Assembly: GCA_038058635.1 (NCBI GenBank)
Contig: JBBUAP010000001.1
Coordinates: 13,606 to 77,605, forward strand
Direction: 5' to 3'
DNA from: Patescibacteria group bacterium
Lineage (GTDB): Bacteria > Patescibacteriota > UBA1384 > 2-12-FULL-50-11
DNA: 64,000 nucleotides
This document shows positions 19,370 through 44,452 of the stretch, piece after piece; the stretch's first letter is position 1; every line of letters begins with the position of its first letter. The position numbers and the translations under genes were made by a program. The notes under the pieces are model-generated. The model was not told the origin of the DNA. It was given only the letters and a program-made list of their open reading frames with translations, and ran no database searches.

Positions 19370-19624
19370 CTACATCAGACCCTCGATGTAGCTGATGAGT
19401 TCTTTGACCGTCGTCGTTCCGCTGACTTTGCCTGGATCGTCGGGAATTTCGATAGCCAGCTCATTCTCCAACTCCATCTGCATATCAACGAGATCAAGAC
19501 TATCGAGCCCGAGTTCGCCCAGCGTTGTTGCATCACTGATTTCACCGGAGAATTTTGAGCTTCGGTTGTTCTCTAAGACTTTGAGAACAGTCTCTCGTAA
19601 CTGAACACTATCGATACGTGCCAT
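19370..19624 (-). CDS. acpP: acyl carrier protein
   Basis: LGLDSLDLVDMQMELE phosphopantetheine-attachment motif (DSLD). Start at MARIDS inside ORF 19370..19696. Confidence 0.65.
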   Translation of the reverse strand: MARIDSVQLRETVLKVLENNRSSKFSGEISDATTLGELGLDSLDLVDMQMELENELAIEIPDDPGKVSGTTTVKELISYIEGLM

Positions 19625-19783
19625 AGGACTAAACCTCCAGCGCAGGTAGCGCAAGATGAAGCTTACCAATTTCCACTCGAATGGTAAACCATACAACGGA
19701 GCCCTGGTTATGCGCCCGTCAGATATTTCTTTGCGAAAAGACTATGCCTTTGAAAATTAGTACACGAATTCGCAACCGAAACT

Positions 19784-20554
19784 TTATCCAGCTCTCTCAA
19801 GTCCCGTACCCAATTTCCAAAGTGCCTCGAACTGCTGCCGGTAGGACTCGGCAATATGGCGGTTCTCAATAATAACAATAGAGGTATTATCTGGATCCAT
19901 TACTTCAAGTGCAACTTTGTGGCCGTAGATGACAATCGCCACTGGACCAATGTATTCCCCAGGAAGCTCTCGTATCGTTAATAATGGCTGGGCTTGAAAC
20001 TGACGGCTAAAATCCTGACCAGCAAAGGCAATCATCCGAAGTGAGATATTTCGCTTTGCAAAAGTTTTGGCTGCTTTTTCGTATAAAGGCCAGATTCCAT
20101 CAAGTCGCTCGAATATTTCTCCCTGGCCTCCTAGAATCAGGTACTCGTTGTCTTTCTTCAAGGTATCCAACAGATCGTTAATCAATACCCCAAACCCTTC
20201 CGCACCCTCAATAACACGAACCACGTGCGGTTGCCGCTGGTGCATGCCCTTGAGAATTGGTTGTAGTGCTTCAGCTACATAAACTTTGTCCCGAACCTCC
20301 TTTATCAACAGATCTGTATCGGTTACAGAAAAATACAAGCGCTTGTGCTTTTCGTACTTTCTTACCAGCGCGGCCTCCTCCAAGCGCTTAAGCGCTCGGT
20401 AGGCTTGCTCTCGGTGAAGCTTAACGTGCTCTAGCATCATCCCCACCGACGCCTCTCCCTGACGCAATATTTCAACATAAAGAGCAGCCTCGTGTGAGGA
20501 CAGCCCTATTTCTTCAAGTTGTTTCGTCACGTTATTGTGATTCATTTCCGCCAT
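19784..20554 (-). CDS. TrmB-family transcriptional regulator
   Basis: N-terminal TrmB-type wHTH (LSSHEAALYVEILRQGEASVGMMLEHVKLHREQAYRALKRLEEAALV) plus a C-terminal effector-like domain. Confidence 0.55.
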   Translation of the reverse strand: MAEMNHNNVTKQLEEIGLSSHEAALYVEILRQGEASVGMMLEHVKLHREQAYRALKRLEEAALVRKYEKHKRLYFSVTDTDLLIKEVRDKVYVAEALQPILKGMHQRQPHVVRVIEGAEGFGVLINDLLDTLKKDNEYLILGGQGEIFERLDGIWPLYEKAAKTFAKRNISLRMIAFAGQDFSRQFQAQPLLTIRELPGEYIGPVAIVIYGHKVALEVMDPDNTSIVIIENRHIAESYRQQFEALWKLGTGLERAG

Positions 20555-20672
20555 CTTTTATCTTGTCTAGAACCAGTTTATAACAAGCTCGTGTCAATGT
20601 CAATAGTTGTAACAACAATGTGTTGACATTCTCTACTATTCTGTTAATATTCGACGTAGAAAGGAGAGTAAA

Positions 20673-20711
20673 TGAATAGCCCCATAAAACCGCAGTTACC
20701 AAGCGCGTAAA
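20673..20711 (+). CDS. 12-codon upstream ORF (MNSPIKPQLPSA) with a strong SD, upstream of the YcaO gene
   Basis: AAAGGAGAG then 4 nt then ATG. Stop 37 nt upstream of the nearest YcaO start candidate (the TTG at 20740 opening the ORF). Confidence 0.3.
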
Positions 20712-20757
20712 TAGAAACATCCAGCAGTCACCCAGGTGATTGCTGGTGCAAAAAACT

Positions 20758-22311
20758 ATGAAAAATTACTACCTCCAGCCAGGATGGGAGATTATCCCCC
20801 GTGAGTCAGGAGTTGAACTTCTGCCACTGAACGATAGCCAGAAACCTCTGTTTTTGGAGAATTGTCGTGAAGTTCCAAGTGTTGCGGGGCTTTTTGAGGC
20901 ACTCCGTTCAGGAATCAGCACCAAGTCCGTCCTTCCGGGTTATAAAAGCACCCTTTCGAAGTTGATCGATCGTAAAGTAGTTGTACTTCACGATGAGCCC
21001 ACTGCCGCCAAGAAGATTCCCGGTTACTTAGGCGCGCTTTATAATCACTGTGTTGGTCACAACGGAATCGTCCACTCGGTCTCGACAGTCACACATTGCG
21101 AGGCGATAACAATTTCGGAGGCAATTGGGTTGAGCTCCAAGCTCATCAAGTACCAACCAACCTTAAACTACGGCTGGGGAGCAGACCCGAGCGCTGTGAT
21201 GGCAAAAATAAAGGCGATCGTTGAGTGCGTGGAGAGATTTGCGCTCTCAAATTACAGTTCCGAAAACTTACGCCTGGCTACTTGGAAAGAGGTGCAAAGA
21301 CACTCACTGACCGCCCGCGAGCTAAACACCTCGCCAAATACTTTGATCAGCGCCGGGGCAATAGAATGGGGCAAGCTAGATGAGTTAAACGGCTCAGGAT
21401 CCATTTACGCGCCACTCGACTTTCTCTATCACCCAGTCGACTACTGGTCTCTTGGTCGTCTGCCGGTCTGCCCAATGAATATCTCTGGGGTTGCCGGCCA
21501 CCAAACAAAGGAGGCCGCCGCGGTCAATGCGATTCTAGAGCTTTGTGAGCACGAGGCACTTATGGTGACTTGGTTTGGCAAGCGCAAGACTTCTACGATA
21601 AAGCGCGGAAGCATGGACACGACGTCCAAGAATCTTATTGATCTTTCGGAGCGTAACGGTTGGCGGATAATCGTTAAAGATATCAGCCTCGATCTTGTGC
21701 CTGTCGTCATGGCAATTGGGCTGGGGCCGGCGGGCAAAAGGGCGCTGACCATCGGCTCGAGTGCGGCCTTTAGTTCTAAATACGCCATCAAGAAGGCCGT
21801 CCTTGAAGTAGTGCGAACCATTCTGATGGATGAATCTCGGCTGACCAAACCGTCCGAAATCGAAGAAGAAAAAGTAAACGACATATCCACCCACGCCCAG
21901 TATTACTCCGCCCACAAGCGCCTGAAGCAGGTGGAATGGTTGTGGGAGGGAAGTCGGGAAGTTGAGGCTAAAGACCTCATGACTCACGGCCGTTTCATGA
22001 ATCGTCCCTTGGGTGAAGTCGCAAAATTGTGGGAGAAAGGTGGAGATCCCGAAAGACGGGAGTTGGCCTATATAAGCGAAATTTTGGGGCAGGCTGGCCA
22101 AAGGGTTTATCTAGGTGACATAACGCCGAAATCCATAAAAGACTCTCCTTTGCCGCTGGTAGTTGTACGAGCTCTTGTGCCCGAAATGACTCGAATGGTT
22201 GTTGGCTATAACCTAAGACCCGCCCCAACAACGCGCTACCGCTCGTTGCTAAAAAGATACTGCCCGAATAAGCAGGCATCAGCCCCGGCAAAAGTCCATC
22301 CGTTTAGCTAG
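20758..22311 (+). CDS. YcaO-domain protein (standalone)
   Basis: KAIVECVERFA (ExxER ATP/Mg-binding region) and GVAGHQTKEAAAVNAILELCEHEALMVTWF (YcaO core). No E1-like, dehydrogenase or TfuA partner is adjacent. Start chosen at the ATG at 20758; ORF opens at a TTG at 20740. Confidence 0.6.
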   Translation: MKNYYLQPGWEIIPRESGVELLPLNDSQKPLFLENCREVPSVAGLFEALRSGISTKSVLPGYKSTLSKLIDRKVVVLHDEPTAAKKIPGYLGALYNHCVGHNGIVHSVSTVTHCEAITISEAIGLSSKLIKYQPTLNYGWGADPSAVMAKIKAIVECVERFALSNYSSENLRLATWKEVQRHSLTARELNTSPNTLISAGAIEWGKLDELNGSGSIYAPLDFLYHPVDYWSLGRLPVCPMNISGVAGHQTKEAAAVNAILELCEHEALMVTWFGKRKTSTIKRGSMDTTSKNLIDLSERNGWRIIVKDISLDLVPVVMAIGLGPAGKRALTIGSSAAFSSKYAIKKAVLEVVRTILMDESRLTKPSEIEEEKVNDISTHAQYYSAHKRLKQVEWLWEGSREVEAKDLMTHGRFMNRPLGEVAKLWEKGGDPERRELAYISEILGQAGQRVYLGDITPKSIKDSPLPLVVVRALVPEMTRMVVGYNLRPAPTTRYRSLLKRYCPNKQASAPAKVHPFS

Positions 22312-25300: not shown

Positions 25301-25847
25301 AGTTGGCGGGATTATTCACGCCCTAAAGAAAATTACGACCAAAAACGGCCAGACGATGGGCTTTATTGAGCTGGAAGATCTCACCGGCACCTTAGAACTA
25401 ATTGTCTTTCCGTCGCACTTCCAAGAATTAACCCACCTCTGGAAACCGGATATGATGGTCCTGATCGAAGGGAAGATCTCCGATAAAGACAATTCCGTCA
25501 AAGTCCTAGTCGATCGTGCTTGGGCCTTAAACGGGTTGAATCCGGTGAACCTGCCGAAAATAAATCAGCCAACGGCTAACGGCAATCAGCGATCAGCAAA
25601 TTATCAATCTCCGAAAGCCGACAGCCGAAAGCCGACAGCCGAAAGCTTTGTTATCGATCTCCCCAAAACGGCTACTAAAGAAACGATATCTCGATTAAAA
25701 CAGGTGCTTGAAGCTCATCCCGGTGCCCTGCCAGTTGAGCTACATATGATGCAGGGCGAGAAGCTCAAAGTGTTCCCAACCAAAGTAGCCGTCAAAACCT
25801 CACCGGAATTGAAAGAGCAGCTGAATAAAATCCTAGACAATAATTAG
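22359..25847 (+). CDS. dnaE: DNA polymerase III alpha subunit
   Basis: PHP domain HVHSHYSLLDGL. Polymerase core and OB-fold C-terminus. 1162 aa. Confidence 0.95.
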   Translation: MAQPNFVHLHVHSHYSLLDGLGKVPELVGRAKELGMPALAITDHGVMYGAIDFYLECQKQGIKPIIGVEAYVARRKMTDRTPGEDTKPYHLLLLAKNFQGYQNLIKLTSAAHLDGYYYKPRIDRDLLSRHHEGLIATTACLASETSRLIENKDFKGLNQTVGEYSEIFGKDNYYLELQHHPSIPEQQVLNTHLKNLAAKTGLPLIATNDVHYVNSDDRVAHDQLICIQTGKLVSDTDRMVYGGDFSLKAPQELLEAFGDVPEALSNTLKIAEMVDLEIPLGQSLLPHFQLPKGETEESYLRAWCEQGLQKRYGEITLEIRARLDYELETVMKTGFPGYFLIVADMIKFARSKGIYVGPGRGSAAGSIIAFVTGITNVDPLKYGLLFERFLDLNRISMPDIDMDFEDTRRGEVIEYLKEKYGANHVAGIITFGTIMARAAIRDVGRVLGVPYSKVDALAKLVPPPVQGRHTPLKQMVAAAPELKAAYDSDPENKQLVDAATNLEGTIRHASQHACAIVISKEPLENYVAVQPSQGGDVHQITQYSMLPIEKIGLLKMDLLGLSNLTTMHRATEIIEAVYGPKIDIENLPLDDKETFELLARGDCVGVFQLESSGMRRYIKELRPTKFEDITAMVSLYRPGPMQWIQSFIDRKNGLEEVRYLHPLAESALKETYGIPVYQEQVMRMSKDMCGFTGAEADTLRKAMGKKIPKLMKEMKTKFIEGAINNGVSKEQATDIFRQLEDFAAYAFNKSHATCYALIAFQTAYLKAHYPDCFMAAVMTSDLGDTDRLSIEISECERLGLTVLPPDVNESFTDFAVVKEKKAVRFGLGAIKNVGTIPAQSIVTERKKNGIFTDLNDFMVRNSAHLNKKVLENIIKAGALDRFEERARLNAGVELLAKFVSNSGKTDASQLSIFGEGASNSAAPVLELPQVATDKAAYLIWEKELLGLYLSDHPLKQFSTLLAEIATPITELDISLSGQVVRVGGIIHALKKITTKNGQTMGFIELEDLTGTLELIVFPSHFQELTHLWKPDMMVLIEGKISDKDNSVKVLVDRAWALNGLNPVNLPKINQPTANGNQRSANYQSPKADSRKPTAESFVIDLPKTATKETISRLKQVLEAHPGALPVELHMMQGEKLKVFPTKVAVKTSPELKEQLNKILDNN

Positions 25848-29243: not shown

Positions 29244-29356
29244 GGGCTTGATTGTACCTCGTCAGGAGCTTGAACGGAAGAGTCCTCTGGATACTCCAAG
29301 GGTTGGGATTTGACACCGAAATATTGGTCAGTTAGTCTGAATGTAAGGAGGGGATT

Positions 29357-30829
29357 TTGATTAGTGTACCGATCGACAGAATTGTGCCGTTAACCGACGC
29401 CCGCGACAACTTTAGTCGCCTCATTAGTGATATCGAAACCCTTTCTGACGGCTTGTACGTCCTGACCAAAGGCGGGAAACCGGCCATCGCTTTGATTAAT
29501 ATCAAGTATTTAGAGGAGATAATGGATGGCAAGATTGGTGAGAATCACGAATCACGGATCACGAATGCCGGATCAGATCATAAGCCGGAAATTAGTCGCA
29601 AAGTTCACGAGCCAATCCATCGGCCAGCGCCAGTTAAGTTACCGGAACTACCTAAACCCCCAATCGTGTCTAAACCCGACTTCGCTAAAGCTACGACGGA
29701 CAAGCCCAATTTCGAGGTGCCGCGGATTACAACAGCGCCAATCGGTCCCTCGGCTGAGATTACTTCGACTCCACTCCTCTCGACTGGGCTCCCCTCGACA
29801 CAGCTCGGGGTAAACGGGGTAAACCAGTTGCCAGGAGCTTCTTTGCCGTCAAGCAACTACGATGTTAAACCGACCATTAACCCGACCTGGACTGGTGAGG
29901 AAGCGACCGCAAAGCCGCTAGCACCTAGCAGTCTAGCTCCTAGCCAAAGCCCAACTTCTTTTGCACCGGTTCCAAAGCCAGAAGCTAGTAGCCAGTTGCC
30001 AGTTGCTCCGCCAGCTGGCGGATTGCCCCCGATTGCCCAATTAGACAAGCCCTCGCCCCTCGACTCCGCTCTGGGTAAACCTCCGCCGCCTCCGACACCA
30101 AGCAAACCGACGATCAATCCCTGGCCAATCATCCCGCCGAGGTCACCCCAAGTGACCGAGAAGGGATACGAGTCTACGACGACTGTCCCGCCGCGTCGGG
30201 ACGACGCAAGGGATACGAGCCCCGCGACTGTCCCGCCGCGACCGGTCAATACCGCCCTGCCTCTAGCCCCTAGCAGTCTAGCTCCTAGCCCATCATCTTT
30301 TACGACAGTTCCAAAGCCAGAAGCTAGTAGCCCCTCGACTGGTCTCCCCTCGACACAGCTCGGGGTAAACGGGGTAAACCCGCTGCCAGAAGCTTCATAT
30401 CCCAAGATGGTCGCTCCGCCGCCACCACCACCGCCGTCATCGCTACCAAGAATCCCTAGCAGTTTTCAAACCGTGCCAGTACCAATCAACGGCAATAAAC
30501 CCCCAACTACAGCGCCAGCTCCACTTCCCCCTCCCCCTATAACGACTGCTCCAGCACCGTTTGCTAATACATCGCCAGAAGCTCCTGTTGTCACTCCCTC
30601 GACTCCGCTCGGGACAAACCCCAAACCGGCCGATAGCATCTCCTTCGACCAGCCCCCAACGACCATTCCTGAACCAGGAGAAGATCTTCCAATGCCTTCG
30701 GCGTCTACTAGCAATCAACTTCTAGCAACTAGCACCGATTCGGTTCCTGCTCCAAAGCCAGAAGCTAGTAGCCAGTTGCCAGTTGCTCCTCCACAAGGCC
30801 AGGCGTCAGTTCAAGACTTAGAAATCTAG
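29357..30829 (+). CDS. Phd/YefM antitoxin-like N-terminal domain fused to a roughly 430-aa Pro/Ser/Ala-rich repeat region
   Basis: TTG start with AAGGAGG 7 nt upstream. N-terminus VPLTDARDNFSRLISDIETLSDGLYVLTKGGKPAIALINIKYLEEI. Three copies of the VPKPEASSQLPVAPP / TGLPSTQLGVNGVN repeat block, visible at the DNA level. Confidence 0.55.
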   Translation: MISVPIDRIVPLTDARDNFSRLISDIETLSDGLYVLTKGGKPAIALINIKYLEEIMDGKIGENHESRITNAGSDHKPEISRKVHEPIHRPAPVKLPELPKPPIVSKPDFAKATTDKPNFEVPRITTAPIGPSAEITSTPLLSTGLPSTQLGVNGVNQLPGASLPSSNYDVKPTINPTWTGEEATAKPLAPSSLAPSQSPTSFAPVPKPEASSQLPVAPPAGGLPPIAQLDKPSPLDSALGKPPPPPTPSKPTINPWPIIPPRSPQVTEKGYESTTTVPPRRDDARDTSPATVPPRPVNTALPLAPSSLAPSPSSFTTVPKPEASSPSTGLPSTQLGVNGVNPLPEASYPKMVAPPPPPPPSSLPRIPSSFQTVPVPINGNKPPTTAPAPLPPPPITTAPAPFANTSPEAPVVTPSTPLGTNPKPADSISFDQPPTTIPEPGEDLPMPSASTSNQLLATSTDSVPAPKPEASSQLPVAPPQGQASVQDLEI

Positions 30830-31413
30830 CTGTAGTGGCTGAAAAACCAGGCTGCAATCAGAGTTAATCCGGCACCAAGAATTGTGCCGGCGATAAGTTG
30901 ATTCGGCGAATGCTGTTTTAGCTGCAAGCGCGACCAAATGACCGGCAGTAAGACCAAGTACCCAAGCACAAACCAATTCCCTTGATAAACTACCAACAGA
31001 CTACTTAGGCCAGCAATGGTGGCGGCATGCAGGCTAATTTTCCAAACTGTCGTCACCACCGTCAGCGCCGCCAGCATCGTCACGAGAATGTAGCTCATCT
31101 CGGTAAAGGTGGCGTTTTGAAGTTTCGATTGAACAAGGAAACTACCGATCACCGCCCCCAGGGTTGAGAGCATCAGCGGTACAATTCGGTCGTGTCGTTC
31201 GGTCAGATCCAGGTCGACTGCCCCCTCTTTACGCCAGATATAAACGCTGTAAATAATCCCCGGCAGAACCAATAAACCGATACCGATAATGCTACCTTGC
31301 CAGAATTTTTCAAATGAATCGGTGTAACGACCGACCACCGTCACGACACTGACCGAAACCACCAGTGCTGGGTTAGTTAATAATGAAACTGTTTTAGCTA
31401 GTTTCAGGTGCAT
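30826..31413 (-). CDS. polytopic membrane protein (hypothetical)
   Basis: 5 to 6 TM helices. No diagnostic motif. Confidence 0.4.
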   Translation of the reverse strand: MHLKLAKTVSLLTNPALVVSVSVVTVVGRYTDSFEKFWQGSIIGIGLLVLPGIIYSVYIWRKEGAVDLDLTERHDRIVPLMLSTLGAVIGSFLVQSKLQNATFTEMSYILVTMLAALTVVTTVWKISLHAATIAGLSSLLVVYQGNWFVLGYLVLLPVIWSRLQLKQHSPNQLIAGTILGAGLTLIAAWFFSHYS

Positions 31414-34818: not shown

Positions 34819-37800
34819 TCAGGGTACGATCTCGTACACTTTGGGGAGGGTGCCGGAGACGGAGGTGACGAGGTAACCGCGCTTGACCCCGCCGTAGTAG
34901 CCGACGACTTTGTAAGTATCGGTGGCGCCGAGGGCTTGGGCAGCGTTCAACACAAAGAGCAAGTCTTCGGCATCTGGTAATGTTGGCAGGTAGCGGGTGG
35001 CATCTGACTTACACTGGTAAAGATTGTTAAGTAACTCTGGGTCACCGTTGGCATCTTTTTTAATGTCACTTTTAGCACAGTAGCTATACCAGCCAGCTGT
35101 GGTACCCGTACTACCGCCCCGACTGCTGGCGATGGCATTTCCGACACCGACGCTGGTGGCCAAAATCGCTCCCCCTTTGTCGGTCGCGTTATTAATAGCC
35201 GTGTAGGCAACCAGGCCGGCGGATTTATCGCCATAATTCGTTGTCGCTCGACCGTAAAGCGTAGTGGCAGTACAGCCAAAGCTGAGGAGTTTGTCACAGC
35301 GGTACGGGCGGTAGCCGTCTTGATCCCAACGGCCATTAACACCAGCCCCTGACAGAGTCGGGACAGACATAATTAAACTGGCTAGAGGCGTACTTCCCTG
35401 GCTTTTAAATCTGGCACCTAAATCGCTTAAAATTGCCGTTCGGCCCCAACTCCAACCGTTATAAGGATTAGGATCGTTCGAATCAATTTGACTATTATTA
35501 CGACCCATACCACCCAACTGAGATAGTAATGGCTTTGAAGAGCAGACCGTACCAGCAGAACCATTGACTTGGCCAAGATAAGTACATACCTTGTTAGTGC
35601 CCCGATCGCTGCCCTGGAACTTCAGGGATTTATCAACGCCGCTAGGCCAGCCGGTAGCGTTGTCCTCGATGGTTTTAGTTAGAGAGACGGCGGTCGGATC
35701 GTTAGCGGCAAAGTTGTCGATAATATAGAAGCTGTTGTCGATATTATTTCCGCTATCGGGCCGGCCGAGCATTTTGGCACCGATCGAACTACCGTAGTCA
35801 GCGCTGGAAATGTCGGTTTTTTGTTTGCCTCCAAAGTAGACCAGTTTGGTTAATCCGCCGGATTTGTAGGCGACGAGTGAGCCACCAAATAGATTAGGGA
35901 TGTCGCTGGCCGAGTTGGGCGAGACATACTGGGGCGTCCAAGCGGCGTTACCAAAAGTCGGATTTGCTCCAGCGTTATCTTGTTTCCAGAGCGAGCCGTA
36001 CTGACCGAATGTCCCACCAACCATAAATAACTTACTGGCATTCTGAATGACTCTTGCCCCTGCAGTAAATATACTAGCCACCGCTCCGGCTCGTCGAGGT
36101 GAGGGGCGGTAAAGAAGGGTAGGATTTTTAGCGGAGAGGCGAATCTTCCAGGCCCCATTACCAACAACATCTTTGACCCACTCTGGAGCGTTGGTGGAAT
36201 CGTAATAATTCATTTGATGATCGGTGATAGTAACGAGACGATCGGTTCCACCAGCATTGGCAATTTGACTCGAGCTATAGCCGAACGGATGGGGAGAAGC
36301 GATCAGTTTGTCAAAGTAAATATTGAAAGTATTGTTTACAAAAGTTCGTCTTGTAACGATAAAGGTATAGGCGTTGACCGGGAAAGTCCCGGGTGGGTTA
36401 CCAGTATTAAGCCAAATCATCACCATCGCCCCGACACCCGGAACCCGACCAAGATTTGGCACGTTTTGGAGCGAGACATGATCAGAATAACCCTTGAAGG
36501 TACCTCCAATAGTCGTAGTTGTGTCAAACGACGGGGTCATAGTGACTTTGACGTTCTTTGAATCACCAGAAAGGCCGGAATCCCCTGGATAGTCCGGGTT
36601 ATGCCTCAGGCAGAGCTGTTTAGTTTCGTAGACTACACCACATGGCGAATTAGTAAACATGTCCTCAACAATGCCATGAAAAGTTTCGCGACTACCATCA
36701 CTTGTTCGTCGCTCTAGCGTTGCCCAGGCTCCAACAACAACTTTATCGGCATCATTGGGATCAATTTCCATTCGCCATTTCTTACTGTCGTCCCAGATTT
36801 TGTAAGTAATATTATTACGATCGGTGTAATCCTTATCTTTGACTGCCCCAAGGTTCACACCGCCACCTGTAATATTGCTAGTAGCAACTTGATAAGTGTA
36901 ATTCGACCGAATAACCTGAAAGTTGTAAACGCTACTAGTGGTAAAGTTGGGGTCGATTGTATTGTCCGTTGGCTGGGGCAACCAGGCGGCGCTAAGGGGC
37001 CCGGGATTAGTAGCCTTGTTCTTAAACTCTACATTCCACAAATCAGCGAAGCGTAGATTGTAGTTGATGTTTTTAGCGGCGCCTTCCCAGTATGAGGCCT
37101 TGGTTGGCGCTAGCGGTTGGAGAGCAAGGGTGGCACCGTAACGAGGCGAGGGGAAGGCGATAGCCGAATCGCTGGCAGCGATAGCACTGCCTTGATCTTG
37201 TACCACAAAGTCAGCAACGGCACTTTTGGTCTCATCGGAGACAAAATAGGCCTTACCATAAATATCGATATAGTTTATAAAGCCGGACAGGGTGTTGGTC
37301 AGACTAGTTGCGTCGTACTGCTCCAAGACAACCGAGTCTCCAACAGCGTAGCCGGTCGAGTCGCCACTCGAATCTAGTTGGCAAAAATAATGGCCAGCAT
37401 CTATGCCACCAACGCAGGTGTTGGTGGTGATCTGTCGCTTGACCACTTGGATCGCTAGAGACTTCATCGTAATCGATCCTTCAGAACCGTTATAACCGTA
37501 GACCATGAGTTCAACCATGTTGTTATTGTTGTAAACATTTTTTACTTTGCCCCAGGCGTAAAATTTACTGTCATCGGCTTTATTGCCGTACAGATAGACT
37601 TCATCGCCTTTGGCAAGCCCTGCGACGGCAGGATTAAGATAAATGAGCGAAGAAGCAGTACCATCAACCACAAGATCTTGGGATTCACCAGGTTTATTTT
37701 TTACTATCCAATTCCATCGCTCTAAGCCAGAGCGATCAGCCAGTGTTGAGGTAACACGAACGGTATAGCGTAGCCCACTCTGAATTTTCTTTGTTACGTC

Positions 37801-39981
37801 AATGGTTGAAGCATAGTCAATCTTTTCCCATGTATTAACCGCTGGACTCGCAGGATTTAGATCGAAGGCATAAACATCGTTGGTCACTCGCTTAGCAATC
37901 CTTAAACCCGGTCTGTTAGTGTAGAGACAGGTTGATTGGTTAGTCTCGCAGTTAATGTTGTTTGGTGCTAGCATTACTGCCTGGTGATAATAGCCGCCGA
38001 TCATCACTAAACGCTGGTTAACTGAATCGTATACCATCGAAGCGCCAGCGCGCTTACCAGGATTTGTATTACTTGGGGCCTTAAAAGTCCAAGCGAGATT
38101 CTGATCAGCCACTTCCGGATCGTAGATCCATAATTGATCGGATTCCGAGGCGTAGCCGCCATCGTAGTCGTTCATATTCACAGCCCCGCCGTAGTAAGCT
38201 ATTTTCGGGCCATTTTGTTCAAAATAAGTATAAGCCATCTCCCGGATTGGCAATGGGCTCTGGCGGAGTTTGTCAACGGTGAAATTAGTGAAGGATGTAC
38301 CGCTGCCGAAATTAACATTCGTCACTTTACCCCAAACCGGCTTATTGGGCGCTTTCGTCAAGCTAACTAAGTCGCCGACAGCCGGACAGATGGTCGCACA
38401 ATCGTGTCCGTTGGCGGGAGTAATGACAGTACCATTACTACCAATGCTGACCGAATCTATTGAATTAGCTGTTGAGAACTGCGGCGGCGCAAGCACAACG
38501 ATCGTGTCAACATCCGCCCCGGTTACCCAACCACCCGAAGCTTTATGTGGCGTATTATAATAGTTACCACTGAGATCATCACCACTACCCAACTTGAAGT
38601 CAACGCTAATCGCATCGACACCGTTACTGGTTGTGATTGGACCGATTTTTGTGAACTCTGCACTGTACAGTCGTCCCTGGTCTTGACCTCGGTACTTAGT
38701 TTCTAGTGACAGTGGTTGCTGATTTTTGTCAAGCAACAGCAAGGTAATCGATTGATTGAGACGCAATCCCTCAAGTGAGCCATAAACAAAACCACTAATG
38801 GTAGCACTGTTACTTCCGCCGGAAAATGTTTGGTTGTTGTCGGCCAATTTAATAAACGAAAAAGATTTTGCTCCCTTAACGATCGCCGTTCTCCAGCCTG
38901 AATCGGCGCTCGTCATCACTGGCTGGCTTTTCTTCGCCCAAGCTAGCGTGGCGTTTTCGGCATCATCAGTTTTGTACGGTGTTGAAAGATCGTCAGCCTC
39001 CGGGGTGTCGTTCCAGAGAGAGGGCTGAAGCCATTTCAGTTTGTAGTCGGTCGAGTTAACGAATAGGTCGCCAAAGCCGTATTGATAAAGTTGCGCATCA
39101 GATATTGAGGCGTCAATCCAGACCTTGAAATTGTTTTCTTTAATCGTTTTTTCAAATTTCTCTCGTAAATCTGTCGCTGTAATCCTATCGAACTTCGAAC
39201 CTGGAATAGTTGGAGGAAGCCCTGTGTCACTCCAGCGCGGCAAATAAGGAATATAGACAAAATCGACATTCTTGTAAAACGAGCTTACCCCGTCGGTGTC
39301 TTTTCTGGTTAAGAACTGATCTTGTGGTCCGCCGAGCTTAACCGTCCAATAATTCAGATCTTTTTGTTTGGCGCCAACTGGGGCGAAGGGATTGTAGAAG
39401 TGTCCCATATTGGTCAGCTGGGAAACGGTTTTGGCTTTGTCGGTGTCCGGAAGGGCGCCGTTACCAGGAATAATCCCCAGCGGGGTGTCGTTGACGATAT
39501 TGGCGTAGTTAAAAATCATCGCTGGGTTGGCGTCGTTGGTCTGGTTTTGTAAATACTGGCCGTCATTGGTCCATGGCAGTAAGACGATGACGCCGTTACA
39601 CCGTGGCAGAGAGGTGGAAATCTTTTGGTAAGTGGAGACGATTTTGCGCGGGCTGGGGCGAAAGGGAGTTGAGATCGGGGTCGTTTCTTCATTTTTATCA
39701 AGATCGAAAACCGTCCCGGTCGTCGCCGGCGGCGTGCCAGCGGCCAGTTTTTCTTTGAGCTTGACCAAAGCCGAGTCAGCGGCAGATTTGGCGACAGTGG
39801 CGTTAGCAATTTTGTCGGTCGAGGCCAGTTGGTCAAACCTAACCGCAATCGACGCCAAAGTCGTCGTCGTCAAAATGGCGATAATCATTACAGTCAAAAG
39901 CAACGCTGAAGCTGGACGGTTACTTTGATTAAACATCGTCGCCTCCCTCGATTCGTCCTTGATTCTCACATTGCTGCGCAA
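34819..39981 (-). CDS. giant (1720 aa) membrane-anchored surface protein, last gene of the pilus-like operon
   Basis: N-terminal signal anchor ASALLLTVMIIAILTTTTLASIAV followed by about 1650 aa of Gly/Asn/Thr/Ser-rich beta-type sequence. No catalytic motif. Co-directional with, and 78 nt downstream of, the pilin-like genes. Confidence 0.55.
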   Translation of the reverse strand: MRSNVRIKDESREATMFNQSNRPASALLLTVMIIAILTTTTLASIAVRFDQLASTDKIANATVAKSAADSALVKLKEKLAAGTPPATTGTVFDLDKNEETTPISTPFRPSPRKIVSTYQKISTSLPRCNGVIVLLPWTNDGQYLQNQTNDANPAMIFNYANIVNDTPLGIIPGNGALPDTDKAKTVSQLTNMGHFYNPFAPVGAKQKDLNYWTVKLGGPQDQFLTRKDTDGVSSFYKNVDFVYIPYLPRWSDTGLPPTIPGSKFDRITATDLREKFEKTIKENNFKVWIDASISDAQLYQYGFGDLFVNSTDYKLKWLQPSLWNDTPEADDLSTPYKTDDAENATLAWAKKSQPVMTSADSGWRTAIVKGAKSFSFIKLADNNQTFSGGSNSATISGFVYGSLEGLRLNQSITLLLLDKNQQPLSLETKYRGQDQGRLYSAEFTKIGPITTSNGVDAISVDFKLGSGDDLSGNYYNTPHKASGGWVTGADVDTIVVLAPPQFSTANSIDSVSIGSNGTVITPANGHDCATICPAVGDLVSLTKAPNKPVWGKVTNVNFGSGTSFTNFTVDKLRQSPLPIREMAYTYFEQNGPKIAYYGGAVNMNDYDGGYASESDQLWIYDPEVADQNLAWTFKAPSNTNPGKRAGASMVYDSVNQRLVMIGGYYHQAVMLAPNNINCETNQSTCLYTNRPGLRIAKRVTNDVYAFDLNPASPAVNTWEKIDYASTIDVTKKIQSGLRYTVRVTSTLADRSGLERWNWIVKNKPGESQDLVVDGTASSLIYLNPAVAGLAKGDEVYLYGNKADDSKFYAWGKVKNVYNNNNMVELMVYGYNGSEGSITMKSLAIQVVKRQITTNTCVGGIDAGHYFCQLDSSGDSTGYAVGDSVVLEQYDATSLTNTLSGFINYIDIYGKAYFVSDETKSAVADFVVQDQGSAIAASDSAIAFPSPRYGATLALQPLAPTKASYWEGAAKNINYNLRFADLWNVEFKNKATNPGPLSAAWLPQPTDNTIDPNFTTSSVYNFQVIRSNYTYQVATSNITGGGVNLGAVKDKDYTDRNNITYKIWDDSKKWRMEIDPNDADKVVVGAWATLERRTSDGSRETFHGIVEDMFTNSPCGVVYETKQLCLRHNPDYPGDSGLSGDSKNVKVTMTPSFDTTTTIGGTFKGYSDHVSLQNVPNLGRVPGVGAMVMIWLNTGNPPGTFPVNAYTFIVTRRTFVNNTFNIYFDKLIASPHPFGYSSSQIANAGGTDRLVTITDHQMNYYDSTNAPEWVKDVVGNGAWKIRLSAKNPTLLYRPSPRRAGAVASIFTAGARVIQNASKLFMVGGTFGQYGSLWKQDNAGANPTFGNAAWTPQYVSPNSASDIPNLFGGSLVAYKSGGLTKLVYFGGKQKTDISSADYGSSIGAKMLGRPDSGNNIDNSFYIIDNFAANDPTAVSLTKTIEDNATGWPSGVDKSLKFQGSDRGTNKVCTYLGQVNGSAGTVCSSKPLLSQLGGMGRNNSQIDSNDPNPYNGWSWGRTAILSDLGARFKSQGSTPLASLIMSVPTLSGAGVNGRWDQDGYRPYRCDKLLSFGCTATTLYGRATTNYGDKSAGLVAYTAINNATDKGGAILATSVGVGNAIASSRGGSTGTTAGWYSYCAKSDIKKDANGDPELLNNLYQCKSDATRYLPTLPDAEDLLFVLNAAQALGATDTYKVVGYYGGVKRGYLVTSVSGTLPKVYEIVP

Positions 39982-40058
39982 GGTTCGAATTAATCATCAC
40001 GGTAAGGAGAAGTGCGGATCCTGTTTTTGACAGTTCTTGTTCGTACATCTTTTTCATT

Positions 40059-41732
40059 TTAACCGGGCTCCAATCCACCGCCACAAACTGCAAGTGGGTC
40101 GCTGATAGTCAGATTAAAACTTTTGGTTGCGGTTTTAAGTGGGTCGGCGTTATCACGCACCCTAATGGTGAGACTATAAGAGTAAGGATACAATTTGCCG
40201 GCATCACAAGTCGGAGTACCGGAGATTATACCGCCAGTACTTAAAGCCAGCCCTGGCGGTAAACTGCCGGAATCAACTGTCCAAGTGTAAGATCCGCTCC
40301 CGCTAGCGGTCAGTTGGAATGGGACATAGACAGCATTGATACTGCCACTTGGCAGAGGGCTTGATGTCGTAATTGTCAGTGTTTGGCCACCACTTGGCGA
40401 GACCGTTAGAGAGAAAGTTTTCTCCGCATAGTTAGTTAGATTACTACTTTCGGCAGCCCTGATAAGGAAGCTGTAAACGCCAGCCGTCGTGGGAGTGCCG
40501 TCAATTTTACCACCAGCACTCATACTCATGCCGTTAGGCAAACCGCCGGATATAATCGTCCAGGTGCAGCTGCAAGGCATGGCAGGATCAACGCCTCTAT
40601 CAGCTTTTAATTGTCCCCCGGGTAATAGCACCCCCGGATTGTAACTTACTCCCACGGTGGCGTCTGGCAGTGGGGTAGTAGTTGTGATTACTATTTGATC
40701 ATCAATGACAAAGATCGACAGAGGTTGGGAGGCAGTACCAATGATGGGGGTGGCACTATCCGTAACCGTCACAGTAAAGTTATAGGTATGGCCAGCAGTG
40801 GGCGGGTTTGGTGTACCGGTAATTACTCCGGTAGTCGTCGACAAAGCCAGACCGTTGGGCAGAGACCCTGAAGTTATCGCCCAAGTGTATGGTGGCATAC
40901 CACCACTAACGACAACGCTTGTAGCATATGGCGGAGTACCGGCATGAGCATTCGGCAAGGTTGTCGTCTCAATTTTGAAAACGACTGTTGCTTCGTTGAC
41001 CAAGCCAATCGGCAATCCCTCCTGAATGGTTAGGGTTGGTTTTCGGGCCTCGCTAGTGCCGCCACTGCCTTTTTGGGCCGCCTCCAGCGTCAGCGAATAG
41101 CGCAGGAGCTGTTTGGTCACACAGGAGGAGGTAATGGTAGTGCAACCAACACTTTTCACTGCAAACTGGGCGGCTTTAACCACGGCCTGAACATTGGTTA
41201 GGCGATTTTGATAAATCGGACTAGTTGTCGGACAGAGACCGCCGGAATCGACATTATAAATCAGGATAGCGATGACTGTTCCGACTTTATTGATGGTATA
41301 TTTCTCCTCGCCTGTGGAGTCGGTAGTGGCGATGGCTCGGCCGATCACAGTACAGGTGTTGCCGGATTGTAAGTCGGAAAAAGCTTTGACCTGAATGGCG
41401 GCAAATGTCGTACCACCGTCGTTGGGAATAATTGGGGTGACTGCACCAACTGGAGCGTTAGCGACAGTTCGCCGAATGGCCTCGCCCACCCCGCGAGTGC
41501 TCTCGCTAATCGATGAACGGGCATCGGCTTTTTGAATCATGCCGTTAGTACCGACAACGGCGAATAGAGCAATACTTAAGGCGACAAGCAGTAAGGCGAC
41601 ACTGACAATAAGCTCAATCAAGGTGAATGCTCGGGTACGAGAATTTCTAATTTCGAATTTCGAATTTCGAAAATTTTGAGTTTTGAGTTTTAGTTTTGAC
41701 TTTTGACTTTTGACTTTTAAGTTAACTTTCAT
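40059..41732 (-). CDS. prepilin-like protein with a 35-aa Lys-rich leader and tandem Ig-like (He_PIG/cadherin-like) repeats
   Basis: Start at MKVNLK, overlapping the upstream stop (ATGA). Leader MKVNLKVKSQKSKLKLKTQNFRNSKFEIRNSRTRA then FTLIELIVSVALLLVAL. Three LPNGLALS..G.I.GTP repeats. Confidence 0.6.
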   Translation of the reverse strand: MKVNLKVKSQKSKLKLKTQNFRNSKFEIRNSRTRAFTLIELIVSVALLLVALSIALFAVVGTNGMIQKADARSSISESTRGVGEAIRRTVANAPVGAVTPIIPNDGGTTFAAIQVKAFSDLQSGNTCTVIGRAIATTDSTGEEKYTINKVGTVIAILIYNVDSGGLCPTTSPIYQNRLTNVQAVVKAAQFAVKSVGCTTITSSCVTKQLLRYSLTLEAAQKGSGGTSEARKPTLTIQEGLPIGLVNEATVVFKIETTTLPNAHAGTPPYATSVVVSGGMPPYTWAITSGSLPNGLALSTTTGVITGTPNPPTAGHTYNFTVTVTDSATPIIGTASQPLSIFVIDDQIVITTTTPLPDATVGVSYNPGVLLPGGQLKADRGVDPAMPCSCTWTIISGGLPNGMSMSAGGKIDGTPTTAGVYSFLIRAAESSNLTNYAEKTFSLTVSPSGGQTLTITTSSPLPSGSINAVYVPFQLTASGSGSYTWTVDSGSLPPGLALSTGGIISGTPTCDAGKLYPYSYSLTIRVRDNADPLKTATKSFNLTISDPLAVCGGGLEPG

Positions 41733-42193
41733 TCTATTATCCTCGCCGTAGTCATCTGTCTCTGCACCCCTTTGCCCCAAGAGGTGGTGGCGTTGACGAG
41801 GTAGCTAGTACCGGTCAAACGGATGACGACTGATGGCACAAATTGTAGTTTGCTCGTTCCAATTTGAATAGTGGCTTTGGTTTTCTGTAGGACACAGGAT
41901 CCGCTGGTGTCCACCGGGCAGACAACATAGCAAGTTTTACCTTCGCCAATACAATCAAGACCGGGGGGGGCTGGAGTGCCGTAGGTCGTTGCGAAATTTG
42001 CTCCTTTAGTCCTTTTCTCCAGCGCCACGAAAGAGAGTGACTGCTCGTTCAATCCTAGGGCAATTTGTTTGAGCTCCGTCGTTTCGGTCAGCCGGGCGGC
42101 GGCGTTATTGAGCGTTGCCATGGCCACCCCGACCATAATCAAAAAGGCAATCGCAAAAATCACCTCGATTAATGAGAATGATCGCTTCATCAT
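41729..42193 (-). CDS. minor pilin/pseudopilin-like protein
   Basis: MMKRS then FSLIEVIFAIAFLIMV class III-type N-terminus with E5. 154 aa. Start overlaps the upstream stop by 4 nt. Confidence 0.6.
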   Translation of the reverse strand: MMKRSFSLIEVIFAIAFLIMVGVAMATLNNAAARLTETTELKQIALGLNEQSLSFVALEKRTKGANFATTYGTPAPPGLDCIGEGKTCYVVCPVDTSGSCVLQKTKATIQIGTSKLQFVPSVVIRLTGTSYLVNATTSWGKGVQRQMTTARIIE

Positions 42194-43530
42194 TGTGGGG
42201 TTTCCACACAGGGATTAATTATTTGAGCCAACCCCCGACCAACGAACAATTGGGCTAATCTGTTCTTCAAGCGATCGGTAGACCTAGTAATTGGAACAAT
42301 CGGATTGCAGGCGGTGGCGTTACCGCCCGGGTCAATCTGCACAATCGGCGGTGGCAGGACATCGCTGGGCGGGTCAGAGATTATCGAGCCGCAAGAAAGG
42401 ACGAAGTCCTTAGACCTCGGTTTGAGTCGGAGGTCAGTCAGATTATCACGACCATTGACCGAAGGCTGAGTAAGCTTAATTGCATCAAGTGCTGATACTA
42501 TCACGGTCACTGTTTTGGGTTGGTTGGCAACTGTAAAAGTGTCAGTCGTAAATTGGAAGCGAACCGGGTATTTGGTTGGGTCACCAGGGTCATATGGAGC
42601 CAGGTCATAAAAGTAGCTGATAGCTAGTGGCTGTGAAGGCGCCGTACCAACTTTCCATTCAATGTTGTAGGCAACAAATAAATTAGGGTCGCCTTCGGAG
42701 GTAGCGTCATTAACCCGGTCATTGGCTCTCGGATAGCTTATGGTGATATCTGATTGCGAAGTACCACAGGCAACTGATACCGTAAATTTGCTCGCATCAG
42801 CCACATCGGTCCATTTTGGAACGAGATCGTCAACAACTGGCGTGAAATAACTTTGGGGGTTAGAGCGAGAGATAGCGACTTGATGAGTGACACGATCGAG
42901 CGTCACATAGCGTTTGTCGCCGACTTTTTGGCTTCCTAGAGTGACAACTAAATAGCGAGCGACGGTGGCGCCGTTATCTTTGTCTTTGCCTGCCCAGTTG
43001 GCCAAGAAAAGTTGGCCAGATTTGAACGCCGGGTTGGCAAAACTGCCACAACTGAAGCCGTTCTCGCCGACGGCAAATCGTATCACCGCCTGGTCGTCAT
43101 CGACAGTTTGATTGGAGGGGTAGAACGACGAAACATAAATTCCGCGCGGCAATTTGATGTTGCGCAGGGTGGTAAATCCGCCCGGCACATCACTGCCATC
43201 GCATTGGACTAGCCCGCGTTCGAGAGCGACGGTGTTGGTCGTCACTTCGCCGTTAGCCGTACCGTTGGTGGCGGCTTTGGTAAACTTGCCGAACGAGACC
43301 TGGAACACCTGTGGAGCGCCCGAGCTGTCGTTTTTGTCCGGTGCTTGAGAGCGAGTCTGGGCTTCGATAATCACCTGACGAACTTGGCTGGCGCTGGAAT
43401 CCAATAACATTCGATCGCTCCGATTGAAGAAATTGGGGATACTAGTAATGCCAATAACGGTGATGACGGCAATCACCACTAAAAGCTCGACCAGGGAGTA
43501 GGCAGAACGATTAGTAGGCCACGACAACAT
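42190..43530 (-). CDS. prepilin-like protein (large)
   Basis: ...TNRSA then YSLVELLVVIAVITVIGI N-terminus. Start ambiguous (ATGs at 43593, 43548, 43530), all overlapping the upstream gene end. Confidence 0.5.
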   Translation of the reverse strand: MLSWPTNRSAYSLVELLVVIAVITVIGITSIPNFFNRSDRMLLDSSASQVRQVIIEAQTRSQAPDKNDSSGAPQVFQVSFGKFTKAATNGTANGEVTTNTVALERGLVQCDGSDVPGGFTTLRNIKLPRGIYVSSFYPSNQTVDDDQAVIRFAVGENGFSCGSFANPAFKSGQLFLANWAGKDKDNGATVARYLVVTLGSQKVGDKRYVTLDRVTHQVAISRSNPQSYFTPVVDDLVPKWTDVADASKFTVSVACGTSQSDITISYPRANDRVNDATSEGDPNLFVAYNIEWKVGTAPSQPLAISYFYDLAPYDPGDPTKYPVRFQFTTDTFTVANQPKTVTVIVSALDAIKLTQPSVNGRDNLTDLRLKPRSKDFVLSCGSIISDPPSDVLPPPIVQIDPGGNATACNPIVPITRSTDRLKNRLAQLFVGRGLAQIINPCVETPQ

Positions 43531-44452
43531 CGAGGTCTCCTGCCACATCTTTGCAATCTGGGTTAGCAATATAGCTACTTGCACTACTGACAATTGGCTC
43601 GTAAGTTACTTTATTATCGGGAGTAATAACCGAGCTATCCGCAGACTTTCTTTTGCATTGGTACAGGTATTTGCCGTCATAAACATTAGCACCGCCCAGG
43701 ACATATAGAGAACCGTAAAAGTTGTAATTAATGTCAGTCAGGACATTGGAATCTGAATCTGAATCGTCGTCAAGATGGCGAACAACTGAACCAGAGCCAC
43801 GATAGTAGCGTTTTAGCGCAGTAGTTTGGTTGAATAAGAAACTTGCGTCAGAGTCGGTAGCCGAGTTTTCTAGATTTGAGGTCACGACCACATCGCCATA
43901 GTCATAAGAAACTCGATACTGGTATTTATCCCAAGCATTGGCCGACATCGGCTTGGGATCGGCCAGCAGGCGGTCCATATAACGCAGGCAGATCAGAAAA
44001 TGATTTACTGAAACGAACCCAGGCTTGAGCGTAATCTTTGGCGCACCCGCCGTCGCATTATTAAGTTGATCGATTGTTGGGTCGAGTGGGTTAGTGCTGG
44101 AGAATTGGGCGGAGTCGCCGCCGCTAGCTGGTAAACCATTGCAGGCCACAATATCGGTGCCGAGACCGAAGTTTGAGTTAATATTCAAGTCGGTTGCGTT
44201 GCCCTGATCGCCTAGGCTAAATGTCGGATTCGGATAAATCTTGAAGTCGGCTTTGAACAGATTGATTCCTGATAAGAAACTGTTGATCTCGGCTTTGCGT
44301 TTGGCATCACGACTCCGTTTCTGAACCGGCACAACGGCGACCGTTACTAGGGTGATCAGTATGCCGATAATGGTAATGACAACCAACAATTCGATCAGCG
44401 TGAACGCAGATCGAGAATTTAGAATTTTGAATTTAGAATTTAGAATTTTCAT
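43511..44452 (-). CDS. type IV pilin-like protein (probable major subunit) with a repetitive Lys-rich leader
   Basis: MKILNSKFKILNSRSA then FTLIELLVVITIIGILITL. The leader is encoded by (AAATTCT)5 on the coding strand. Confidence 0.65.
   Translation of the reverse strand: MKILNSKFKILNSRSAFTLIELLVVITIIGILITLVTVAVVPVQKRSRDAKRKAEINSFLSGINLFKADFKIYPNPTFSLGDQGNATDLNINSNFGLGTDIVACNGLPASGGDSAQFSSTNPLDPTIDQLNNATAGAPKITLKPGFVSVNHFLICLRYMDRLLADPKPMSANAWDKYQYRVSYDYGDVVVTSNLENSATDSDASFLFNQTTALKRYYRGSGSVVRHLDDDSDSDSNVLTDINYNFYGSLYVLGGANVYDGKYLYQCKRKSADSSVITPDNKVTYEPIVSSASSYIANPDCKDVAGDLDVVVAY

Follow-up and report, generated by a model that had tools for sequence, protein, structure and literature searches.

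In a 64,000-nucleotide (nt) stretch of DNA from a Patescibacteria group bacterium (assembly GCA_038058635.1, contig JBBUAP010000001.1, positions 13,606 to 77,605; the whole stretch is referred to below as the window), the open reading frame (ORF) at 29357-30829 is a real gene, which encodes a protein with a small N-terminal head of the predicted Phd/YefM antitoxin fold followed by a very long, proline-rich tail predicted to be disordered. Comparison with orthologues indicates that in the Berkelbacteria clade this tail keeps four short linear motifs while the intervening sequence drifts and gains or loses short repeats, and that the gene is solo, vertically inherited and held in a fixed position of the core genome. 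The gene is probably that of a housekeeping scaffold or regulator, and the more specific reading to which we give about an even chance is that of a domesticated antitoxin fold, which would serve as a dimeric anchor for a disordered tether with partner-binding motifs in a housekeeping role. The same protein has been deposited under the title 'MAG: hypothetical protein AAB669_00185 [Patescibacteria group bacterium]' (P0004; MAG, metagenome-assembled genome), from contigs of up to 495 kb.

The Phd/YefM-type head and the proline-rich tail

An earlier note on this DNA, made from the letters alone, had recognised a Phd/YefM-type fold in the first 60 residues, and this assignment holds, although in a profile search the copy in the window stays below the curated cut-offs. 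With PF02604 it scores 23.3 bits (E 5.6e-5) for residues 1-68 and 17.8 bits at full length, where the cut-off is 29.8, and with TIGR01552 it scores 14.5 against a cut-off of 20.8. This shortfall is overturned by the orthologues and by the structure, and the homology of the head is accepted because E-value and fold agree. Each of the 14 orthologue heads reaches E<=0.01 with PF02604 (best E 3.7e-8), and a profile built from the orthologue heads finds RelB of Mycobacterium tuberculosis (9g12) at E 8.8e-4. An AlphaFold2 model of residues 1-64, built on 15 sequences, has a predicted local distance difference test (pLDDT) value of 88 and a predicted template modelling (pTM) score of 0.71, and contains strands at 9-11, 33-38 and 41-47 and helices at 12-28 and 49-56, in the order beta-alpha-beta-beta-alpha. 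When this model was compared with the PDB by Foldseek, the first 45 matches were all Phd, YefM, M. tuberculosis RelB/RelJ, VapB46 N-domain or PfiA antitoxins, with probabilities up to 1.00, query-normalised TM-scores up to 0.69 and root-mean-square deviations down to 1.3 Å (1.3-2.3 Å for most top matches). Residues 1-57 are accordingly modelled as a Phd/YefM fold.

Characterised Phd/YefM heads are dimeric DNA-binding modules, and Phd/YefM antitoxins hold their toxin via the segment right after helix 2. With such antitoxins (PF02604; P1 Phd, E. coli YefM, M. tuberculosis RelB/RelJ) the protein has in common the N-terminal fold, a disordered C-terminal part and the signature 'xARxNFS ... LTK/RxGKP', including an arginine, the invariant R16 of the head, which a MAFFT alignment places opposite YefM R10. 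In YefM, R10 and R31 have been shown to be essential for binding of operator DNA (PMC4803016). The head retains 61-81% identity between genomes whose neighbouring housekeeping proteins have diverged further, with identities of about 50% for Ndk, 60% for M16 and 55% for EF-P. The segment just after helix 2 (residues 58-110) is variable and gapped in the alignment of the 14 orthologues, and in this lack of conservation it differs from the corresponding segment of Phd/YefM antitoxins. The tail as a whole is also 5-8 times longer than theirs, with 430 residues as opposed to 30-40.

The tail is of low complexity and rich in proline, serine and alanine, as the earlier note had stated; over residues 61-490 it contains 23.5% P, 11.6% S, 9.5% T and 8.8% A, and its charge is nearly neutral, with 29 K and R residues against 33 D and E. 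In a full-length AlphaFold2 model, whose mean pLDDT of 49.7 makes it too poor for a fold search, DSSP assigns no helix or strand beyond residue 69, and the sole stretch of the tail with a pLDDT near 80 is the polyproline block YPKMVAPPPPPPPSSLPRIPSSFQTVPVP. Codon comparison argues that the tail is translated in the annotated frame and is under selection: in the 338 tail codons that could be aligned with the orthologue L002, 130 differences are synonymous and 137 non-synonymous, and synonymous changes relative to the orthologues are abundant at conserved residues in head and tail alike. An ORF of 182 codons on the opposite strand (29857-30405), Gly-rich in translation, was rejected as a gene, being the mirror of the CCN proline codons of the tail.

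What was missed when the tail was taken for featureless low complexity is a series of short motifs that are invariant across the clade. Conservation was assessed in 14 genome-derived orthologues, whose full-length identity to the protein in the window is as low as 36%, and in a wider set of 21 database homologues. The motifs are INPTWTG (motif 1), NPWPIIPPR (motif 2), SISFDQPPTTIPEPGED (motif 3) and the C-terminal tip VQDLEI, and their coordinates and invariant residues in the 14 orthologues are given in Table 1. In the set of 21 sequences, I428, F430, D487 and I490 stay invariant and the tryptophans W178 and W256 are found in at least 90%; each orthologue tail has exactly two tryptophans, each of them within a motif. 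The polyproline block is identical in the close orthologues P0007 and L001, and the polyproline run is retained throughout the clade with P358 invariant in the 14 orthologues. Indels relative to P0007, which is the closest homologue (82% identical), all fall in the tail and between the motifs. In other clades the tails are acidic and rich in P, S, T and A, range across clades from 40 to more than 430 residues, and in several cases end in conserved acidic-hydrophobic tips of their own (EPEDMxID, DDMPIG, SDSDLFV and QPVKISIN).

Known classes of peptide ligand were considered by eye for these motifs and set aside. Readings as SH3 ligands (PxxPxR), as WXG/type VII elements or as clamp-binding motifs are unsupported because their key positions are not invariant. 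The beta-clamp-binding motif is QL[SD]LF or QLxLxL at a terminus; VQDLEI, like the DMxID, DMPIG and DLFV of other clades, lies outside this consensus and has only the alternating hydrophobic pattern in common with it.

In one orthologue, L001 (Berkelbacteria GWA2_46_7, LCMV01000019.1, 1460-2600), the reading frame changes by +1 near 1900-1930, so that the gene is split. Its annotated product is a 166-residue protein consisting of the head and a short tail, and an independent Logan contig encodes the same 166-residue product. The remainder of the tail, including its motifs and VQDLEI, continues as a conserved open stretch in the next frame and lacks the INPTWTG segment. The frame break could reflect a genuine split of the gene, a pseudogene or programmed frameshifting.

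Family distribution, gene neighbourhoods and the search for a toxin

The 14 loci were obtained in a scan of species-representative genomes, from Berkelbacteria and other Patescibacteria MAGs, and all of them encode the head together with a proline-rich tail of about 220-430 residues, at total lengths of 283-478 residues. A word-index search with the single sequence of residues 1-100 returned just 3 matches, and the family emerged by way of the genome scan and of profile searches. The family is large and occurs in many CPR/Patescibacteria: an exhaustive search of 1.84 billion representatives (50% identity clusters) with the head profile gave 399 matching representatives at a threshold of E<=1e-3, of which 224 reach E<=1e-10. 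A length of 130 residues or more is found in 138 of the 150 best matches (median 227), and a long tail is thus the rule for this subfamily of heads, so that the architecture is not, as the earlier note had it, unusual either way.

In all 18 Berkelbacteria-clade loci (16 derived from genomes and two from an independent look-up) the gene order is the same: genes for DnaE, a bPH-domain protein, a GT4 phosphosugar transferase, Ndk and an M16 peptidase read leftward, the gene itself reads rightward, two PAP2 genes read leftward, and XerC, S6, SSB, S18 and EF-P follow rightward. M16-Ndk-GT4 is also found divergently upstream in two more distant clades, and one locus that extends downstream (L026) has DedA, BacA and PAP2 followed by XerC. 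Other neighbourhoods have been found as well, one in which XerC precedes the gene and YchF, S6, SSB and EF-P follow it with gaps of 8-32 nt, and one in which it stands between FtsK and a RodZ-like HTH_25 protein that is followed by RecA. The largest clade has a convergent DedA/VTT gene as the immediate downstream neighbour at 34 of 41 loci; at 40 of the 41 such a gene is no more than three ORFs away, and GtrA and rmlABCD are found upstream. The window contains one member of the family. At one locus (L020, 2-1999) the family gene is immediately preceded by that of a XerC-like tyrosine recombinase interrupted by an intein, which contains a LAGLIDADG endonuclease domain.

The absence of a toxin partner and the convergent orientation of the next gene, both put forward in the earlier note, were confirmed. 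The next gene encodes a PAP2 phosphatase (30826-31413, convergent, with a 4-nt overlap); no adjacent toxin gene was found in about 85 loci from several clades, where the downstream gene is in every examined locus either convergent (PAP2, DedA) or a housekeeping gene, and the RelE, YoeB, Doc and PIN families gave zero matches among the 20 leftover small ORFs of the 64-kb window. Several traits of type II antitoxins are lacking here, namely the toxin gene in the operon, the short toxin-binding segment in a protein of about 70-95 residues in total, and a patchy, mobile or multi-copy distribution. Unlike Phd/YefM antitoxins, this gene is, as far as the loci indicate, single-copy, vertically inherited and fixed in a core position, with a head that outconserves its housekeeping neighbours, and its copy in the window stays below the Pfam and NCBIfam cut-offs.

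Candidate roles of the protein

Patescibacteria account for much of the diversity of bacteria and have tiny genomes, in which few genes are kept needlessly. A basic role for this gene seems likely because it is single-copy and fixed in position, because its head outconserves Ndk and EF-P and because its tail holds invariant residues. If the antitoxin fold has indeed been domesticated as proposed above, the dimer of heads would anchor the protein, most likely on DNA, since the arginine essential for operator binding by YefM is kept as R16, and the two long flexible tails would recruit one or more candidate partner proteins through the exposed motifs and the acidic-hydrophobic tip. The fixed neighbours, which include genes for undecaprenyl-phosphate recycling, XerC, FtsK, a RodZ-like protein and RecA, suggest a role associated with the growth of the envelope, with division or with the handling of the chromosome rather than with neutralisation of a toxin.

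The logic of such a protein would be akin to that of SSB, in which an oligomeric DNA-binding head and a proline/glycine-rich disordered linker are followed by the acidic-hydrophobic tip DDDIPF, which acts as a protein-recruitment hub; the window's own SSB ends in LDDIPF. By analogy only, both proteins have a folded head, a long linker of low complexity and a free C-terminus that is short, acidic-hydrophobic and strictly conserved (VQDLEI here), whereas the present head is of the Phd/YefM type and unrelated to the OB fold, and its linker is much longer and has internal motifs. Antitoxin-type folds in housekeeping roles are also exemplified by MraZ, with an AbrB/MazE-like fold, and by MatP, which has a ribbon-helix-helix head and a tail that binds a division protein. 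They have a small dimeric antitoxin-like DNA-binding fold, as is predicted for the present head, and like the present protein are encoded by conserved chromosomal genes near division or envelope genes, and the contact of the C-terminal tail of MatP with its partner would be the counterpart of the role proposed for the tail here, but the fold differs, being Phd/YefM in this family. A Phd/YefM head in such a housekeeping role was not found in the full-text literature searched.

Several points weigh against the domesticated anchor and tether. We infer both the DNA binding of the head and the partners of the tail; in the MAFFT alignment the second essential arginine of YefM, R31, falls beside K38, one residue off, and the full-length AlphaFold2 model, which is of low confidence, shows the motifs undocked from the head. 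The search for toxin families covered the 64-kb window, and a toxin may be encoded elsewhere in the genome. Conserved gene order in the small genomes of the Candidate Phyla Radiation (CPR) can be inherited without any functional link, and the themes of the neighbours differ between clades, being envelope in some and DNA in others. No conserved palindromic operator was found in 16 aligned intergenic regions, despite very similar heads, which also argues against classical autorepression at the gene's own promoter.

A wider version of the scaffold reading, which is possible but rather unlikely, is that of an unrecognised, CPR-wide housekeeping family, with this gene as its first example, in which the antitoxin DNA-binding fold was domesticated as a chromosome- or promoter-anchored scaffold coupling DNA to the division and envelope machinery, with disordered arms and clade-specific tips that would link to FtsK/Xer, to the RodZ-like protein and to lipid-carrier recycling. 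If true, this would be a new kind of nucleoid-to-envelope tether in bacteria without many of the canonical division regulators.

The main rival is a plain transcription-factor role, in which the protein would specifically repress or activate envelope genes on either side of it, whether those of the divergent M16-Ndk-GT4 operon or the convergent PAP2 or DedA genes, and the tail would serve for docking of a sensor or co-regulator. The earlier note had suggested a transcription factor with a disordered tail, and this is still a live option, if an unlikely one: characterised Phd/YefM heads are operator-binding repressors (PMC4803016), R16 is conserved, several clades have the gene in divergent orientation to the M16 operon or to GtrA, and its constant neighbours GT4, PAP2, BacA, DedA and GtrA all use or recycle polyprenyl phosphate. 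It is weakened by the absence of a conserved operator, as the intergenic region of 67-210 nt has no shared inverted repeat, while a simple repressor needs no motif-bearing tail of 250-430 residues and other clades pair the gene with XerC or FtsK. A good deal less probable is that the protein still acts as a type II antitoxin on a toxin encoded in trans, which one of the conserved tail motifs would bind. The homology of the head to antitoxins, the disordered C-termini of antitoxins, which fold on the toxin, and the NCBI label 'type II toxin-antitoxin system Phd/YefM family antitoxin' on some homologues would all agree with it, and the portion of the genome examined is 64 kb; yet there are zero adjacent toxins in the loci from several clades, the single copy in the window and the fixed order amid core genes are unlike mobile toxin-antitoxin modules, and the head is more conserved than housekeeping enzymes whereas the region after helix 2 is variable.

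The two remaining explanations concern the tail, and both are very improbable. One is that the protein is secreted or exposed at the cell surface, for instance as a wall-spanning or adhesion protein of an episymbiont, as extended P/S/T-rich regions are typical of wall-spanning segments and envelope genes lie nearby. A cell-surface protein had also been considered in the earlier note, but the protein has no signal peptide or LPxTG-type sorting motif, its N-terminus being the folded, cytoplasmic-type head itself, and the tail has no membrane segment (maximum Kyte-Doolittle value over 19 residues, 0.79). The other is that the head alone is functional and that the tail is a tolerated expansion of low-complexity sequence, with which the variation in tail length between clades, the partial origin of the tail from short duplications and the heptamer-derived inserts in relatives (see below) are consistent. 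That explanation is difficult to reconcile with the invariant Trp, Ile, Phe and Asp positions and the fixed C-terminal hexapeptide, which persist in dozens of sequences despite drift, or with the near absence of tail-less family members.

Neither a Phd/YefM head with a long proline-rich tail nor this CPR family was found described in the full-text literature searched, which is not proof of absence; the domain is already known, and some homologues are automatically annotated as Phd/YefM antitoxins. For these genes that automatic label is probably misleading. The domesticated anchor and tether would clearly exemplify how an antitoxin fold can be put to non-toxin use and how bacteria employ short linear motifs, and the four motifs constitute defined peptide baits for partner finding.

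Gene signals, internal repeats and other features of the window

The features of the gene are listed in Table 1. Its start codon, as read from the sequence, is TTG, and a GGAGG-type site is present at the equivalent position in most of the orthologous loci. Conservation of the intergenic region in the 16 Berkelbacteria-clade loci is limited to the promoter hexamers and the ribosome-binding site; TTGACA and then TAnnCT are aligned in most of these regions, with the exceptions of L007, which has TTGACG, and L010, in which the second hexamer is a variant. A scanner based on the E. coli consensus made no promoter call for the TTGACA/TAGTCT element, because the second hexamer matches that consensus at only 3 of 6 positions.

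Table 1. Coordinates in the window of the gene, its expression signals, and the domains, motifs and repeats of its product
Feature	Position	Strand	Details
CDS (coding sequence)	29357-30829	+	490 aa (amino acids) plus stop; ORF listing of the window
Shine-Dalgarno AAGGAGG	29345-29351	+	Read from sequence; 5 nt ahead of TTG
Promoter-like element	29310-29338	+	TTGACA 29310-29315, 17-nt spacer, TAGTCT 29333-29338
Head, aa 1-57	29357-29527	+	Predicted Phd/YefM fold, beta-alpha-beta-beta-alpha; AlphaFold2, Foldseek, PF02604 in orthologues
Tail, aa 58-490	29528-30826	+	Predicted disordered, proline-rich; AlphaFold2/DSSP, composition, indels
Motif 1, INPTWTG	29876-29896	+	aa 174-180; W178 invariant in 14 orthologues
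Motif 2, NPWPIIPPR	30116-30142	+	aa 254-262; W256 and P257 invariant in 14 orthologues
Polyproline block YPKMVAPPPPPPPSSLPRIPSSFQTVPVP	30398-30484	+	aa 348-376
Motif 3, SISFDQPPTTIPEPGED	30635-30685	+	aa 427-443; I428 and F430 invariant; consensus TIxFDxPPKTxxEPGE
C-terminal tip, VQDLEI	30809-30826	+	aa 485-490; D487 and I490 invariant
Repeat, copy 1 of 2	29776-29841	+	Partner 30331-30396; 92% over 66 nt; peptide STGLPSTQLGVNGVN
Composite repeat	29906-30013	+	Partner 30251-30352 with 6-nt indel; third partial copy 30746-30793; peptides PLAPSSLAPS and PKPEASSQLPVAPP

At the 3' end, the gene and the convergent PAP2 gene both terminate within the palindrome CTAG (30826-30829), which their stop codons have in common, and this 4-nt overlap of stops recurs in several Berkelbacteria loci. 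A tight 3' overlap as a general trait of the family was rejected, as the gap in the DedA-linked clade has a median of 107 nt. In a scan for consensus promoters and terminators, no terminator-like hairpin was found between the gene and the convergent PAP2. On the other side, within 29244-29260, a TACAAT box lies only about 7-12 nt upstream of the ATG of the divergently oriented M16 peptidase gene; it is conserved in close relatives and suggests an M16 mRNA with a very short leader or none.

Within the gene, the earlier note had described three large repeats, near-identical at the DNA level, as a sign of recent internal duplication. The duplication is borne out, while the description is not, since the repeats are dispersed units of 40-66 nt that encode peptides of 15-19 residues. 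They comprise the 66-nt pair at 92% identity, a 40-nt pair at 88% and three copies of a 48-nt unit (94% and 71%), two of which have an exact 38-nt core in common; the 66-nt repeat at 29776-29841 is missing or shorter in P0007. The three repeat cores are confined to this gene within the window, and a genome-wide element was rejected. Because the repeats are unique to the gene in the window and coincide with indels against P0007, recent internal duplication is real but small in scale.

Tandem repeats with a period of 7 nt are found in the window at 25611-25646, 29542-29575, 41641-41723 and 44414-44448, mostly inside ORFs or at their ends. Variable tail inserts in the homologues P0008 and P0024 resemble translated heptamers (e.g., QPSAISHQPSA and LGTRNSELE), which suggests that expansion of heptamers feeds low-complexity coding sequence in this lineage.

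Elsewhere in the window, the region 34819-44452 contains a 1720-residue ORF with zero Pfam matches at E<=1e-5, followed by a protein with He_PIG Ig-like domains and, further on, a protein with an N-terminal methylation (type IV pilin-like) motif and a 154-residue ORF with a hydrophobic pilin-like N-terminus; together these look like a pilus or surface-protein cluster. At 19370-22311, a gene for a YcaO cyclodehydratase (20740-22311) lies near that of a small protein with a phosphopantetheine-attachment domain (19370-19696).

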